Source: a virus
Lineage: Duplodnaviria; Heunggongvirae; Uroviricota; Caudoviricetes
Strand: one strand, 5' to 3'
DNA length: 25,115 nt
IMG/VR virus record: IMGVR_UViG_2541047736_000010
Coordinates: 1 to 25,115 of that record
Under the pieces are notes generated by a model. The model saw only the letters and a program-made list of their open reading frames with translations. It ran no database searches and was not told the origin of the DNA. Below, piece after piece: positions 8,596-21,513 of this stretch (positions are counted from its first letter, which is position 1; every line of letters starts with the position of its first letter). The translations under genes and the position numbers were made by a program.

Positions 8596-9183
8596 ATCAT
8601 AACGTCCGGTTTCTTCCGTGCCAGAACCGGACTCGCTGGCATGATGAAATATGTGTACCCGGTAACCCCGGTGTGCATCGTTTTTGATTATTCCCGCACA
8701 CTCGCGCAGAAGGAGTTCCCCGTCGGGCTACGGTCTCTGTTAATACGGGAATACGGCGACGATACAGCGCATGATGTGTCAGGCTTGAATACCTTTATCC
8801 TTTAAAAGGGATATCAGTTAAGTTATCCCGTGTAGGGTATAAGCCATTATCAAAGCCACTCTGTAGGGAATGGCTTTTGTGATGGCATCACTTACTCTTT
8901 ACGCTGCTATCCCACTCATCCCGGAATTTTGATGGGTTATTGAAACCTTCTGCTGACATAACAACTCCTTCAATGTTTGGCTGAAATTAGGATGTCTTTC
9001 CATCAGTCCGCCACCACAAAGAATCTTTTTTGCCATAAGGCAGGAGGTTCATCTTTCAGTGGCTGCCGGTGTTATTTCCCCACTTACTGGCTTAGGTTGT
9101 TTCGTGGTACTGCCGTTAACTGGTGGCCCAGAATAAATTCCGGTTTCATTATCAAGCCCACCCGTAAATGGGCTTTGTAATGG

Positions 9184-9453
9184 CTACTTCACTTTTGCTT
9201 TTGCTTTTGCTTCCGCTCGCTTACGCCGGCGCTCTTCTTTCCTCTCGGCTTTTGCCATGTCCATGAATGCCTGCATGATCGAGTTCCGCATCATGTAGCT
9301 AACAAAGTGATGATTGACACAGCCGTTGAGGCGCAGCTGCTCGCCAAACTCATCCACCGAGGCCAATGCTTCCATCATGCCCTTCTCGCCTTTCATGAAC
9401 TCTGAGAAGTCGCGCCCCGCTCTGGAGGCGCATTCAATAACACGATCACTCAT
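9184..9453 (-). CDS. Hypothetical protein with a highly charged KAERKEERRRKRAEAKAKAK C-terminal tail
   Basis: 89-aa ORF whose ATG (9451-9453) overlaps the stop of the upstream KilA-N gene, suggesting translational coupling. No family recognised. Confidence 0.45.
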   Translation of the reverse strand: MSDRVIECASRAGRDFSEFMKGEKGMMEALASVDEFGEQLRLNGCVNHHFVSYMMRNSIMQAFMDMAKAERKEERRRKRAEAKAKAKVK

Positions 9454-16639: not shown

Positions 16640-17133
16640 TACGCCCCCACGTAATTCCCTGACAGATACCACTCTTCACCCGATGCAGCCCGCTTACTGC
16701 TTTTCCGTAAACACCGTTCACGACGCGCCAGAAAATTGTTTCGTTCTGGCTGGGAGTGGCTTTCACGGAATGCCGCCATCCACACCGTTGCAGCACGACG
16801 GTATAAGCCCCTGGACTCCAGTTCTTCAGCCTGGCGGGTCAGGCACAAAATCACCCGTGGATCGTTAGTGCCGACATAGAAATTGCGCACAGGTCTGGTT
16901 TCACGAACTGGTTGTGGTTCCGGCTCCTGCGCTCTCTCAGTCAGGCGCGGGAAATGTCTGCATGTATCTCCTTCACAACGGTGAGCCACACGCCCACTCT
17001 GACGTAACTTGCTTGCAGACTGCAGAACGCGCTGCCGTGAGTAACCTGCAAAAGCATCCGCAATGTCTCCGGAAGTACACCCCGGATGGGCTTCAATGAA
17101 TTTCTGAACGTCATTTAACAGACTCATGATCAC
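16639..17133 (-). CDS. Putative regulator with PerC-like C-terminal region
   Basis: C-terminal RGLYRRAATVWMAAF resembles the GLWRRAA..W motif I recall from PerC/Pch-family activators. N-terminal half looks winged-helix-like. Assignment is tentative. Confidence 0.4.
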   Translation of the reverse strand: MIMSLLNDVQKFIEAHPGCTSGDIADAFAGYSRQRVLQSASKLRQSGRVAHRCEGDTCRHFPRLTERAQEPEPQPVRETRPVRNFYVGTNDPRVILCLTRQAEELESRGLYRRAATVWMAAFRESHSQPERNNFLARRERCLRKSSKRAASGEEWYLSGNYVGA

Positions 17134-18071
17134 CCCCTGAATCCTGCAGGGATCTGGCTGTAGTCCACGTTGTCGTAACTGGATTTGAAGTACGGGTCTT
17201 CGCGTTTTTCGGTGTACGTGCTGACGGACGGTGATAAGCGCAGGGAAAGCTCATCCCATTTTTCCCGCAACTTCGACGGGCTGAGCACGTTACGGCACCA
17301 GAACGGATCGCGGCTGACGCGGCTGTACATCTCGCAGATTTGTTTGTGAGTACGACCATCCTGTACACACATCAGGCGAATTTCGTTTGCCCAGGCTGTC
17401 CAGTTCGGTTCTTTGGGACGAACCACCTCGCCGTCACATTCGGCGGCTTGCTCGTACAGGGCGATGATTTTTTTCCAGAGCCACTGTGCGCAGGTCAAAT
17501 CATCCTGCGTTCCCCACTGGCGCTTTTTAGGGCTGAATACAACCGCATCAGGATGGCGAGTTAAAAAATCCTGTTCATCCGTCTGCGTGTCCGGTTGCGA
17601 AGCGTCCGGACGAGAAGGTTTTTTATCTGACGGATCATGTTTTGATTTTACTGACGGATCCCCGCCAGATTCTGACGGGTGAAAACCCGCTTTTTTGCCA
17701 GATTTCGACGCATCAAATTTTGACGGGTCAGATTTTAATGCGTCAGATTTTGACGGGTCAGAATCTGACAGTTGAGAAAATGCCGCTGCCTGAAGCTTCG
17801 CAACGTTAAGCTGATAAACATTCGACGCATTGCGGTTACCCTGGCGACGCGCCTTACGCGTTAACCAGCCTTCTGCTTCCAGCCGTGCGATAGCCGTCCT
17901 GACGGTACTCATCCCCGCGCCAATCTGACGGGCAATAGTTTCAATTGATGGCCAGCACACACCTTCGTCATTACTGAAATCAGCCAGGCGGGCCATAATT
18001 GCCACGCTGGATAATTTCATGCCTGATGCAGCGCAACCATCCCATACATAGCCGGTTAATTTAGTGCTCAT
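17130..18071 (-). CDS. Replication initiation protein (lambda O-like role) with iteron-encoded linker
   Basis: N-terminal HTH region (SSVAIMARLADFSNDEGVCWPSIETIARQIGAGMSTVRTAIARLEAEGWL) and a low-complexity D/S/K/P-rich central linker encoded by the iteron DNA, as in lambda O. GAGG ribosome-binding site before the ATG at 18069-18071. Confidence 0.7.
   Translation of the reverse strand: MSTKLTGYVWDGCAASGMKLSSVAIMARLADFSNDEGVCWPSIETIARQIGAGMSTVRTAIARLEAEGWLTRKARRQGNRNASNVYQLNVAKLQAAAFSQLSDSDPSKSDALKSDPSKFDASKSGKKAGFHPSESGGDPSVKSKHDPSDKKPSRPDASQPDTQTDEQDFLTRHPDAVVFSPKKRQWGTQDDLTCAQWLWKKIIALYEQAAECDGEVVRPKEPNWTAWANEIRLMCVQDGRTHKQICEMYSRVSRDPFWCRNVLSPSKLREKWDELSLRLSPSVSTYTEKREDPYFKSSYDNVDYSQIPAGFRG
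17620..17775. repeat. Iteron array, candidate origin of replication inside the initiator gene
   Basis: Core (T)TGACGG(G/A)T repeated at about 17626, 17651, 17671, 17720 and 17749, with variants at 17704 and 17763 and an inverted copy at about 17738. Spacing is 20-29 bp, interspersed with T-runs. Confidence 0.6.
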
Positions 18072-19205: not shown

Positions 19206-19302
19206 ACGCCCTCCAAACTAAGTTTTATTAGATGCTAATTACAAATCTATCTTTGGTCAATAAAAACTAAGATTACTTAGCAATTCAAGAAATGGTGCTC
19301 CT
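19206..19302. promoter_or_regulatory. Immunity operator/promoter region (OR-like) with CTAA-N6-TTAG dyads
   Basis: 14-bp dyads ctaagttttattag (19217-19230) and ctaagattacttag (19266-19279), plus an overlapping ATTAG-atg-CTAAT palindrome (19226-19238). Lies between the divergent cI-like and cro-like genes. Confidence 0.6.
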
Positions 19303-19929
19303 ATGGAAACGGTTGGTCAGCGTATAAAAGCTCTGAGAAGAGTTACCGGAACGTCCCAGAAAGAATTGGGTAAATTTTGTGGAGTAAGCGACGTTGCTGT
19401 GGGGTACTGGGAGAAAGACATCAATACCCCTGGTGGGGAGGCACTTTCGAAATTAGCGAAGTTCTTCAATACGTCAATAGATTACATTCTTTATGGTGCT
19501 GAGTTTGAAGGCAAACTCGTCACAAACATGCGCAGAGTTCCTGTAATATCGTGGGTTCAGGCTGGGCAGTTTACTGAGTGCAGGGCAGCAGAAGTGTTTA
19601 GTGAAGTGGACAAGTGGGTAGATACATCATTAAAGATTGGTGATAACTCATTTGCATTAGAGGTTAAAGGTGACTCCATGACTAACCCTAATGGCCTCCC
19701 AACAATACCAGAAGGCGCAACAGTGATTGTAGATCCAGATGCAGAACCTCGTCATGGAAAAATAGTCATCGCTCGACTTGATGGAACAAACGAAGCTACA
19801 GTAAAAAAATTAGTCATCGATGGCCCTCAAAAGTTTTTAGTGCCATTAAATCCTCGGTATCCCAACATCCCTATCAATGGTAATTGCCTTATCATTGGTG
19901 TAGTCAAAGGAGTTCAATACGAACTCTAA
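19303..19929 (+). CDS. CI-type prophage repressor (HTH plus S24 LexA-like autopeptidase domain)
   Basis: N-terminal XRE-type HTH (QKELGKFCGVSDVAVGYWEKD). C-terminal S24 signature with GDSM (catalytic Ser) and VKKL (Lys). No strong ribosome-binding site, so possibly leaderless like lambda cI from pRM. Confidence 0.9.
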   Translation: METVGQRIKALRRVTGTSQKELGKFCGVSDVAVGYWEKDINTPGGEALSKLAKFFNTSIDYILYGAEFEGKLVTNMRRVPVISWVQAGQFTECRAAEVFSEVDKWVDTSLKIGDNSFALEVKGDSMTNPNGLPTIPEGATVIVDPDAEPRHGKIVIARLDGTNEATVKKLVIDGPQKFLVPLNPRYPNIPINGNCLIIGVVKGVQYEL

Positions 19930-19994
19930 GACCTCTCTTCTCTAACTAAGGCACCGAACTAAGAAAAGTTTGGTGTTTTCTCTTGCCATAATAA

Positions 19995-20008
19995 CTAAGT
20001 TAAGTTAG
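19995..20008. promoter_or_regulatory. Additional operator-like dyad downstream of cI
   Basis: ctaagttaagttag has the same CTAA-N6-TTAG architecture as the OR dyads. Three further AACTAAG half-site-like copies lie at 19944, 19957 and 19993. Confidence 0.35.
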
Positions 20009-20094
20009 ATTTTATATCAAAGATAACGAACAGGCAGGACGCCCACGAAGTAGCCGCCTGGGGCATATGAAGTCCAGGATGATTCGTTAGCAAC

Positions 20095-20116
20095 AAAAAA
20101 GCGCCCTACAGGACGC
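20095..20116 (-). terminator. Weak candidate terminator for the minus-strand gene convergent with cI
   Basis: Short imperfect hairpin gcgccctacaggacgc (20101-20116) preceded on the plus strand by aaaaaa (a U-tract on the minus strand). About 45 bp downstream of the 173-aa gene stop. Confidence 0.3.
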
Positions 20117-20159
20117 TTAGCTCTTTAACAATCTGGGTATCATCCAACCAATGCAAGAT

Positions 20160-20681
20160 TTAAGGAATCCAAGGCGAATTCAGATCTCGCCCCAACTCAC
20201 GTAATGATCTTGGTCGTTCGTACATCGGATTTTTTTCCATAAGAAATTTATTTTCACAGTGAAGGCAACGGCTTGTAAGAAAATGAGAAGTTTTACCTAC
20301 TGGAAGCGGATGAAGTATCGATTTTATATTTTTGGAATAACAAAGTGGGCACAGATGCACAGTTATTTCTTTTCCACTCACAATTTCATTTTTAGAGTAA
20401 ACAAAAGCACCAGAGTCAAGCTGATCAAGGACATATCCTTCTACCTTGGCACAAAAATCTTCAAACTCTGCAATTTTTGCTTTGAGATGCATCACCTCTT
20501 CATCACGAAGGCGGATCGCATCGCCAAGAGAGAAGCATTCTGCCTGAAGCGTGATTAGTTTGTTCTGGAGTTCAATGGTTGCAGCTTTAACTTCTGCATC
20601 CGTTTTCGCGTCATTAATAACCTTAGCAAGACCGGCAGTCTCCTTTATAGCGGCCATAGCCGCAGACAGTTCAGCTATCAC
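20160..20681 (-). CDS. Coiled-coil plus zinc-ribbon protein of unknown function in the immunity region
   Basis: 173 aa. N-terminal ~75 residues are heptad-like and charged. C-terminus has CPLC ... CLHC (C-x2-C ... C-x2-C). AT-rich gene, convergent with cI. Start ambiguous: GTG at 20681 or ATG at 20657. Confidence 0.6.
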   Translation of the reverse strand: MIAELSAAMAAIKETAGLAKVINDAKTDAEVKAATIELQNKLITLQAECFSLGDAIRLRDEEVMHLKAKIAEFEDFCAKVEGYVLDQLDSGAFVYSKNEIVSGKEITVHLCPLCYSKNIKSILHPLPVGKTSHFLTSRCLHCENKFLMEKNPMYERPRSLRELGRDLNSPWIP

Positions 20682-21010
20682 GTTGAATACTCAGCTAGTT
20701 GTTGGGGATATCCAGATTAACCAAATCCTTGTTGTTGGGGAATAACTAGGTCCACCTCGCCTGATGTGGCTAAAAGCAGGCACATAACAGCTAAGTATTT
20801 TCAACCAGAGAGAATCCTTAGCGTTGTGGTGAATGCGGCTCAGCGCACGCGGGTTAAGGTTGAGGCTGACAGTCGACCTTCTGTGGATACCCACCCGCCT
20901 GGTGTGCAACCTTCGCCAGGCACCGGGAGGCACCCGGCACCACAACTTTATGCTGTGTGTAGTCCTGGCGGTATCAGCTTGTACCCTTGCTTCCGGCTGG
21001 TACCGTCCTT

Positions 21011-21105
21011 TTTACAAAACAGAGAAGAGCATCACCGGACGACGGGCTCATAACCCAATCCATCCGGGCGGCTGCCACCGCAGGTGTTCTTCTCTGTTTT
21101 GTGGA
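21011..21105 (+). other. Long imperfect hairpin in the early-left leader (candidate cis-acting RNA element)
   Basis: 17 contiguous pairs (16 Watson-Crick plus one G-U) between 21014-21030 (acaaaacagagaagagc) and 21086-21102 (gttcttctctgttttgt), enclosing a 55-nt GC-rich loop with sub-hairpins. No U-tract follows on either strand. Lies just upstream of the first early-left gene. Confidence 0.4.
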
Positions 21106-21150
21106 GAAACCAACCGACCCTGCAGGGTCGATATGATGGGGAGCAGCAAA

Positions 21151-21513
21151 ATGGCTAGCGAACGCAGTACTGATGTGCAGGCATTTATCGGGGAGCTGGA
21201 CGGCGGCGTATTTGAAACCAAAATCGGCGCAGTTCTCAGTGAAGTCGCTTCCGGTGTGATGAACACGAAAACCAAAGGTAAGGTCTCGCTCAACCTGGAA
21301 ATCGAACCGTTTGATGAGAACCGTGTAAAAATCAAACACAAACTCTCATATGTTCGCCCGACTAACCGCGGGAAAATTTCCGAAGAAGACACCACCGAAA
21401 CGCCGATGTATGTCAATCGCGGTGGTCGCCTGACTATTCTGCAGGAAGACCAGGGACAATTACTGACTCTTGCCGGTGAACCTGACGGAAAACTCCGCGC
21501 AGCAGGTCGTTAA
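21151..21513 (+). CDS. yfdP: YfdP-like prophage protein
   Basis: MASERSTDVQAFIGELDGGVFETKIGAVLSEVASGV... Start placed at ATG 21151 (GGGGAG 7 nt upstream), giving 120 aa; alternative ATG at 21133. The track ORF extends further upstream through implausible sequence. Adjacent to the YfdQ/R/S/T homologues, as in CPS-53. Confidence 0.65.
   Translation: MASERSTDVQAFIGELDGGVFETKIGAVLSEVASGVMNTKTKGKVSLNLEIEPFDENRVKIKHKLSYVRPTNRGKISEEDTTETPMYVNRGGRLTILQEDQGQLLTLAGEPDGKLRAAGR

Follow-up and report, generated by a model that had tools for sequence, protein, structure and literature searches.

Are the dyads that surround the repressor gene of a lambdoid prophage the operators of its immunity switch, and what does the one beyond the end of that gene control? 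The question is raised by a 25,115-bp stretch of viral DNA (positions 1 to 25,115 of IMG/VR record IMGVR_UViG_2541047736_000010; hereafter the window, meaning the whole stretch), which is a lambdoid prophage of the SfV/LLS/mEp460 type carrying a cI/c2-type repressor gene (cI) and a divergent cro-like gene. An exact search of the window found three copies of CTAANNNNNNTTAG (i.e. CTAA-N6-TTAG), two in the cI-cro region (the right operator, OR, side) and the third starting 65 bp past the cI stop codon at 19929 (the left operator, OL, side). An earlier sequence-only reading had described this layout; it had the shared architecture and the third coordinate right, and placed the first two dyads one base too low. 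We found that the dyads are unique to the immunity region, lie on conserved promoter hexamers, are conserved together with the recognition helix of the repressor, are replaced where that helix differs, and occupy the same positions as the operators of P22. Hence, in line with the proposal of the sequence-only reading that they are repressor operators, the dyads are very probably the operators of a lambdoid immunity switch of the P22 c2/lambda cI type.

The first alternative to weigh is that the dyads are chance palindromes of A+T-rich intergenic DNA. The two non-coding segments beside cI are indeed rich in A+T (97 bp at 68% A+T and 230 bp at 57% A+T), and copies of CTAA-N6-TTAG with one mismatch occur in the window at the chance level (6 found vs 6.6 expected). 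However, dinucleotide shuffles of the whole window gave a mean of 0.28 exact copies, with three or more in 0 of 100 shuffles and in 0 of 300 shuffles of a second run, and local shuffles of the two segments gave 0.008 expected copies, with three or more in 0 of 20,000. No copy occurs in the remaining A+T-rich stretches of the window (at ~8.0-8.6 and 12.1-13.9 kb), and the complete genomes of two same-immunity phages used for a whole-genome motif count, LLS (42,883 bp) and mEp460_4F5 (42,927 bp), hold exactly three copies each, all around cI. Such a count had been suggested by the sequence-only reading, for which a similar motif density throughout A+T-rich DNA would have spoken against operators; neither the local shuffles, nor the other A+T-rich stretches, nor the two genomes show that density. 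In addition, the half-site columns are invariant among relatives while the flanks vary. Hence, A+T richness does not explain the three dyads, and a chance origin is effectively refuted. The mismatch-tolerant pattern is not enriched either (ACTAAG-N4-CTTAGT with up to three mismatches: 9 found vs 6.2 expected in the window), so weak sites are not callable from statistics alone.

The full site is an 18-bp dyad, AACTAAG-N4-CTTAGTT, in which the four central bases are A or T. A position matrix built from 45 sites (the 3 window dyads plus 42 exact-core sites from relatives) gave the symmetrised consensus AAAACTAAGTTAACTTAGTTTT, with G and C each at 0.11 or less at every one of the central four positions. 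Five copies of the half-site AACTAAG are found in the window (at 19216, 19265, 19944, 19957 and 19993; the last three had been listed correctly before), which is not significant alone relative to the 2.1 expected. Two candidates were rejected. The AACTAAG at 19944 is unconserved (mEp460 has AACCAAA there). The palindrome ATTAG-N3-CTAAT, also pointed out by the sequence-only reading, does exist at 19227-19239, but its right arm is not conserved (TTAAT in both mEp460 and LLS), and the conserved pattern beneath it is the minus-strand TAnnAT of the cro promoter -10 hexamer rather than a separate operator.

The 208-aa repressor combines an N-terminal helix-turn-helix with a C-terminal S24 (LexA-like) self-cleavage domain, and the divergent cro-like open reading frame (ORF) is separated from the cI start by 97 bp that hold the operator/promoter region, as in a lambdoid CI/Cro switch. 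The best structural match of the N-terminal domain is the P22 c2 DNA-binding domain (residues 3-65, E 1.9e-10; PDB 3JXB, 2R1J and 1ADR), and the C-terminal domain matches that of lambda cI (E 7.5e-28).

The dyads persist in the relatives of this repressor. Phages 689R6, mEp460_4F5 and LLS keep all three, LLS at ~77% DNA identity, as do 66 of 66 viral contigs in which the start of cI is identical in sequence. Twenty cI homologues of 63-90% identity, from nine genera (Enterobacter, Kosakonia, Kluyvera, Serratia, Rahnella, Yersinia, Rouxiella, Providencia and Proteus), share a near-identical recognition helix, GVS[DG]V[AST]VGYWE[KR]; they keep the dyads ~87 and ~38 bp upstream of the cI start with diverging flanks, and most have a dyad ~690 bp downstream of the cI start, inside TTGAC(C/A)-17-TAGATT. 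When 14 sequences of the cro-cI intergenic region are aligned, the columns without change are those of the operator half-sites, of the -35 and -10 hexamers of the cro promoter (PR) and of the AAGAT in the site nearest cI (the OR3-equivalent), while the two 5' untranslated regions vary.

Where the recognition helix differs, we found different dyads. The helix GVSHVA[IV]SQWEK of Photorhabdus and Xenorhabdus pairs with TTAAG-N4-CTTAA at the same positions, and the helix GVNRVTVTGWEK of Morganella and Proteus pairs with GTAGG-N4-CCTAC, again at the same positions. Similarly, an Edwardsiella relative has GTTTAA-type dyads, and the heteroimmune phage PhiR29, whose cI is of the SfV type, has GTAC-N7-GTAC at the same three positions. 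This covariation of helix and dyad is the strongest of the sequence-based evidence that the cI protein would read the dyads.

The same covariation bears on whether the dyads might be bound mainly by Cro, or by another phage regulator, instead of the S24-domain repressor. The identity of the helix-turn-helix protein that binds cannot be told from sequence alone, and among the OR sites the one with the best symmetry covers the likely cI promoter, the position that Cro binds best in lambda. However, the dyad sequence follows the cI recognition helix across five specificity classes, the 18-bp format with its four-base A/T centre fits the N-terminal domain of P22 c2, the closest solved relative, and a Cro-only reading is disfavoured by the fact that, to our knowledge, repressor and Cro share operators in all studied lambdoid switches. 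Hence, binding mainly by a protein other than the repressor is very unlikely.

On the right side, the two exact dyads are 49 bp apart and the position between them is degenerate (CAAA-N6-TTTG). With the middle site counted, the three OR centres fall at 19224.5, 19248.5 and 19273.5, so that the spacings are 24 and 25 bp; those of P22 are 23 and 25 bp, and the three OR positions of lambda are likewise ~24 bp apart. The centre of the OR1-equivalent falls at about +1 of the cro promoter, which matches the place of P22 OR1 at PR but not that of lambda OR1, whose centre is near -17 of PR; the cro transcript is predicted to start near 19225, in the middle of dyad 1. The GGTCAA hexamer of PR and its TAnnAT pattern are conserved across genera. 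The core of the candidate OR2-equivalent, CAAATCTATCTTTG, is itself a perfect dyad with one symmetric mismatch per half-site relative to the CTAA core, and it resembles the OR2/-35 region of P22; in the Rahnella relatives the middle dyad is perfect (CTAATCTTTATTAG at the same position). In the OR3-equivalent, CTAAGAT..CTTAG is invariant across relatives, and the TAAGAT within it (19268-19273) is the hexamer annotated inside P22 OR3 as the -10 of the promoter for repressor maintenance (PRM).

On the left side, the sequence-only reading had held that an operator downstream of cI, facing a convergent gene, is not the lambda OL arrangement. This was wrong: the P22 record has OL1-OL3 38 bp past c2 with the early-left promoter (PL) pointing away, and lambda has the same topology, with rexAB intervening between cI and OL. 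As in lambda, where cI and cro are also divergent, OL and PL lie downstream of cI and fire in the cI direction, and here too the operator overlaps an outward-firing PL. The OL1-equivalent (dyad 3) starts 4 bp past the -35 hexamer, the same offset as P22 OL1 from the PL -35 TTGACC, and takes up the spacer together with the initial bases of the -10. It is identical in the E. coli, Enterobacter, Kosakonia, Kluyvera, Rahnella and Serratia relatives, and TTGAC(C/A)-17-TAGATT is conserved from Enterobacter to Proteus. A candidate OL2-equivalent, whose matrix score (8.5) ranks fourth in the window, is found 36 bp upstream of the OL1-equivalent, across the -35 hexamer, and P22 OL2 lies 35 bp upstream of OL1, likewise across the -35. 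The Yersinia and Providencia relatives have two perfect OL dyads 34 bp apart that flank the -35 hexamer, and a Proteus relative has dyads on either side of this hexamer at a different spacing. The stem of the cI terminator, which precedes PL, shows compensatory changes in LLS and Enterobacter (CATCAAAC/GTTTGATG).

With the candidate OR2- and OL2-equivalents counted, the distances of the P22 record (OR1 centred on the PR start, OR2 23 bp off in the PR spacer, OR3 25 bp further, OL1 just past the PL -35 and OL2 upstream across it) are all reproduced in the window. All features are collected in Table 1.

Table 1. Features of the immunity region and its surroundings in the 25,115-bp window
Feature	Position	Strand	Sequence	Basis or remark
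Dyad 1	core 19218-19231		CTAAGTTTTATTAG	Exact search
Dyad 2	core 19267-19280		CTAAGATTACTTAG	Exact search
Dyad 3	core 19995-20008		CTAAGTTAAGTTAG	Exact search
OR1-equivalent operator	19216..19233 (core 19218-19231)		AACTAAGTTTTATTAGAT	Exact dyad; half-sites invariant in 14 aligned relatives
PR-like cro promoter	19232..19260	-	-35 TTGACC (19260-19255), 17-nt spacer, -10 TAGCAT (19237-19232)	Promoter scan
Candidate weak OR2-equivalent	19240..19257 (core CAAA-N6-TTTG, 19242-19255)		TACAAATCTATCTTTGGT	Spacing; candidate only
OR3-equivalent operator	19265..19282 (core 19267-19280)		AACTAAGATTACTTAGCA	Exact dyad; best symmetry of the three
cI intrinsic terminator	19948..19984	+	Hairpin core CACCGAAC/GTTTGGTG, then UUUUCUCUU	Fold -15.1 kcal/mol, z -3.7
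Candidate weak OL2-equivalent	19957..19974 (core CTAA-N6-TTTG, 19959-19972)		AACTAAGAAAAGTTTGGT	Overlaps terminator hairpin
PL-like promoter	19983..20011	+	-35 TTGCCA (19983-19988), 17-nt spacer, -10 TAGATT (20006-20011)	Promoter scan
OL1-equivalent operator	19993..20010 (core 19995-20008)		AACTAAGTTAAGTTAGAT	Exact dyad; top matrix score 31.0
Conserved structured leader RNA, 64 nt	20025..20088	+		Directly after PL; outside the immunity-specific module
Minus-strand terminator hairpin	20099-20118	-		Terminator scan; -11.5 kcal/mol vs -7.5 on the plus strand; U6 tail
boxA	20120-20131	+	GCTCTTTAACAA	Directly after the terminator hairpin; only boxA match in the window
cro-like gene, 66 aa	19005..19205	-		Pfam P22_Cro, E 4e-11; divergent from cI
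cI/c2-type repressor gene, 208 aa	19303..19929	+		Pfam HTH_3 (E 1e-10) and Peptidase_S24 (E 9e-28)
Convergent cargo gene, 173 aa	20160..20681	-		ORF; phrog_1244 (function unknown), E 3e-52

A different role for dyad 3, along the lines of the sequence-only reading, would be that of a distal looping anchor to OR only, or of a regulator of the convergent 173-aa gene, without being an operator of PL. The downstream side of cI has a single strong dyad, the gene next to it is convergent, and the C-terminal domain of the repressor is homologous to that of lambda cI, which mediates the long-range OL-OR interaction. However, dyad 3 is placed exactly within the 17-bp spacer between -35 and -10 hexamers that are kept across genera, at the P22 OL1 offset; a covarying plus-strand RNA element begins ~14 nt past the PL -10; a minus-strand terminator lies between the 173-aa gene and dyad 3; and the cargo past dyad 3 varies among contigs with identical cI and is lacking in LLS, in which PL leads directly to the yfdP leader. 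Moreover, looping and repression of PL are compatible with each other, not mutually exclusive. Hence, it is unlikely that dyad 3 acts without being an operator of PL.

Direct control of the 173-aa gene by dyad 3, which the sequence-only reading had considered, finds no footing: a matrix scan found no operator-like site upstream of the gene (beyond 20681, its promoter side), a terminator intervenes, and the gene is mosaic cargo. The window and 689R6 are virtually identical from cro to ~125 bp past OL1/PL, with a single difference in the OR1 spacer, and diverge completely at ~20137. Similarly, the 66 contigs with identical cI depart from the window 149-204 bp past the cI stop, and none has the window's sequence in the place of the cargo. 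Across these 66 contigs (loci L008-L073), at least eight different gene sets, on either strand, occupy the slot that separates the PL leader from the conserved yfdP-upstream region (20137-20750 in the window), with junctions 149 or ~202 bp past the cI stop; only 3 of the 66 have a relative of the 173-aa gene (163 aa), and in LLS the slot is empty. Hence, given this variability among identical-cI contigs, the 173-aa gene is inserted cargo. It has no PADLOC hit and, in Pfam, only a sub-threshold match to DUF641. The hairpin at 20099-20118 is its terminator. Indirect interference of convergent PL transcription with the gene after induction is plausible: the gene would probably be expressed in the lysogen while PL is silent and be opposed by PL transcription after induction. 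In P22, too, a convergent gene that is expressed in the lysogen (sieB) lies within the PL operon. Upstream of the start of the 173-aa gene, we also saw a direct repeat of TTGTTGGGGA (20699-20708 and 20732-20741), which may be part of the gene's own promoter/regulatory region.

Several findings weigh against the reading of the dyads as the operators of a lambdoid switch. The candidate OR2-equivalent has a matrix score of -0.3, so that only three sites are strong, though the matrix was built from exact-core sites and hence is no fair judge of degenerate ones. The candidate OL2-equivalent falls on the cI terminator hairpin, whose sequence is constrained for other reasons, and this makes the conservation of the site ambiguous. 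The two -10 candidates of the cI promoter, TAAGAT (19268-19273) and TAAAAA (19261-19266), both have a poor -35. On the OR side, the consensus is matched more closely over the cI promoter than over PR, which is the reverse of the lambda affinity order. Finally, five Rouxiella-type relatives of ~65% identity (L096, L097, L099, L100 and L109) lack an exact dyad in the 1.5 kb that follow cI, so the OL position is common, not universal. These five retain both OR dyads, and L100 and L109 have a second pair of dyads, 49 bp apart, ~450-500 bp upstream, which suggests a rearranged second operator region.

Relative to P22, the OR2 and OL2 candidates of the window are far more degenerate and no OL3 is evident. 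The lambdoid switch of phage 933W also has a reduced operator set (no OL3) and a non-canonical affinity order (PMC3317979); hence, departures from the paradigm of three plus three operators are already known. The 933W switch has an unrelated specificity and a loss of cooperativity shown experimentally, whereas here the lambda-like C-terminal domain argues for cooperativity.

If the dyads are operators, their specificity should be distinct from that of P22. The N-terminal domains of the two repressors are homologous (~42% identity), and the P22 operators are likewise 18-bp dyads with a four-base, A/T-rich centre, in which positions 2-7 and 12-17 are contacted and the central four bases are read indirectly, with A/T preferred (PMC4267663). 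The homologous domain and the shared 18-bp format with its A/T centre point to recognition of the P22 c2 type, for which the base contacts here would be the corresponding ones. However, the window does not have the P22 half-site that would give P22 immunity specificity: it has AACTAAG, vs ATTTAAG in P22, so that positions 2 and 3 differ (ATT vs AAC). The natural operators annotated in the P22 record are of the type ATTTAAG-N4-CTTAA, with T at position 3, and changing this T to C in both half-sites reduces P22 repressor binding to the non-specific level (PMC4267663). Hence, since C at position 3 abolishes specific binding by the P22 repressor, the two specificities are predicted to be distinct and the window and P22 should be heteroimmune. 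The recognition regions differ accordingly in sequence (GVSNVAISQWERSETEPN in P22 vs GVSDVAVGYWEKDINTPG here), with N32, S36, Q37 and N46 of P22 corresponding to D, G, Y and G. Further differences from P22 are a predicted cI mRNA leader of ~20-30 nt, vs 4 nt in P22, and the lack of gene 24 (the N homologue) and of the annotated nutL, in place of which the window has another conserved leader RNA. The operators of lambda are 17 bp and of unrelated sequence. In lambda, OL and OR are ~2.3-2.4 kb apart, vs ~0.75 kb here.

From this arrangement, we infer the binding, relative affinities, cooperativity, transcript starts and looping of the switch as follows. A dimer of the 208-aa repressor would bind each 18-bp AACTAAG-N4-CTTAGTT site with one helix-turn-helix per outer half-site, leaving the four central A/T pairs uncontacted as in P22 c2, and Cro would be expected on the same sites. 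Occupied OR1 would cover the start point of cro and block the early-right operon. The OL1-equivalent would fill the spacer and the -10 edge of PL, the promoter predicted to drive the yfdP-yfdQ-yfdR...xis-int operon, so that in a lysogen dimers on OR1 and OL1 would block both PR and PL. OR3 would cover the probable -10 of the cI maintenance promoter, and a high level of repressor, or Cro, would turn cI off there. The degenerate OR2 and possibly OL2 would probably be filled cooperatively through contacts of the C-terminal domains, and the lambda-like C-terminal domain makes OL-OR looping over ~730-780 bp possible. RecA-stimulated self-cleavage via the S24 domain would release repression.

Downstream of dyad 3, we found a leader RNA that is structured and conserved. 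From E. coli to Photorhabdus and Xenorhabdus, its core (CGAACAGGCAGGACGCCCACGAAGUAGCC ... GAUGAUUCG) hardly varies, and the leader is common to the heteroimmune phages SfV and PhiR29 and to prophages of Kluyvera, Kosakonia, Photorhabdus and Xenorhabdus. A hairpin of 5-6 bp (20057-20061/20074-20078) with a conserved 12-nt loop and a closing stem covary: 24 cells are changed on both sides, 0 of 500 shuffles reach as high a value, and the shifted-register controls are flat. A covarying leader on the plus strand also gives independent support for transcription of this strand downstream of dyad 3. PhiR29 and SfV, which have a different cI and different operators, share the sequence from ~20028 on; hence, as is the case for classical lambdoid phages, the PL start marks the end of the immunity-specific module.

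Rfam gave no match in the whole window at gathering thresholds and none in the operator/leader region when 19930-21200 was searched at permissive E-values. The nearest analogue of the leader is found in phage HK022, which is without N and in which the structured putL RNA of ~65-70 nt lies directly downstream of PL (PMC9378689; PMC12315714). The leader resembles put in position and size and also occurs in phages without N, whereas put has a 14-bp stem II, vs 5-6 bp in the variable hairpin here. Comparison by BLAST of the PL leader and the yfdP-upstream region with the PL-nun region of HK022 gave chance words only, and the supplements of the put cryo-EM paper hold no matching sequence. Within the window, a search with the core 9-mer gave no second copy of the leader beyond PR; its one candidate (GAAGTAGCC at 9182-9190 on the minus strand) was rejected, as a coding sequence ends there and a terminator follows. 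Hence, with no similarity to HK022 PL, no Rfam family and no second copy, the leader is not identified as an HK022 put RNA, and that it is a cis-acting antiterminator is a reasonable hypothesis drawn by analogy. The boxA listed in Table 1 is what we take to be the core of the E. coli rrn boxA.

A more specific proposal joins these elements: one strong operator per promoter (OR1, OR3 and OL1) with degenerate partners, tight repression through OL-OR bridging by the lambda-like C-terminal domain over ~750 bp, and the structured leader RNA, in some phages with an rrn-type boxA after it, as a cis-acting, N-independent antiterminator that lets PL transcription pass the cargo terminator/antisense to yfdP...int. 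We regard this combination as a tentative, rather doubtful suggestion.

Further downstream, other elements were seen. A sub-threshold Rfam match to STnc100 (20793-21015, plus strand; 40.5 bits vs a gathering threshold of 47, E 5e-7) and a weak DicF-like match (20954-21008, plus strand; E 0.12) fall in the non-coding yfdP-upstream region, whose conservation among heteroimmune phages is 96-97%. At 21011-21105 (plus strand), shortly before the yfdP start, lies a very stable hairpin with a perfect 23-bp stem (-48.5 kcal/mol, z -6.5), at which the early-left transcript may be processed or attenuated.

The neighbouring genes are those of the phage type. Leftward of cro is a gene for a CII-like regulator (Phage_CP76), then O-like replication and PerC-like genes; to the right of cI are yfdP-, yfdQ- and yfdR-like genes, which in related phages continue to xis and int. 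The replication module (17130-18071, minus strand, and neighbours) appears to hold only the O-like gene, without a helicase loader, which matches what has been remarked as unusual for this phage group (PMC12315714).

The window belongs to the LLS/mEp460_4F5 immunity group, which has all three dyads at the same positions and cI N-terminal domains that are 90-100% identical; hence, the dyads are an operator prediction for that group. Of 5,426 complete E. coli genomes, 517 have the immunity region at a coverage of at least 80%, with 'LexA family protein' and 'Cro/CI family transcriptional regulator' as its only annotations, and the region is identical in dozens of viral contigs. Among 50,697 phage records, only 5 have this N-terminal domain at an identity of at least 90%, none of them a classical studied phage; the relatives that come next share less than 50% identity, P22 and phage 21 (42%) among them. 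The LLS paper names P22 as the closest relative of known specificity to the LLS repressor, and the operator specificity of the group was unknown as of 2025 (PMC12315714). A full-text literature search for the dyad sequences found no paper, and the papers that name mEp460 use the name only as a prophage-typing label.

The analysis thus predicts a new operator specificity within a thoroughly known architecture, whose arrangement is ordinary; the classical lambdoid paradigm is unchanged. It gives a testable operator consensus, AACTAAG-N4-CTTAGTT, for a common E. coli prophage immunity type, together with a simple explanation of the predicted heteroimmunity with P22, namely C for T at operator position 3 along with four changed positions in the DNA-binding domain. 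The consensus may serve to annotate prophage switches, to predict superinfection immunity groups and to follow specificity change among c2-type repressors.

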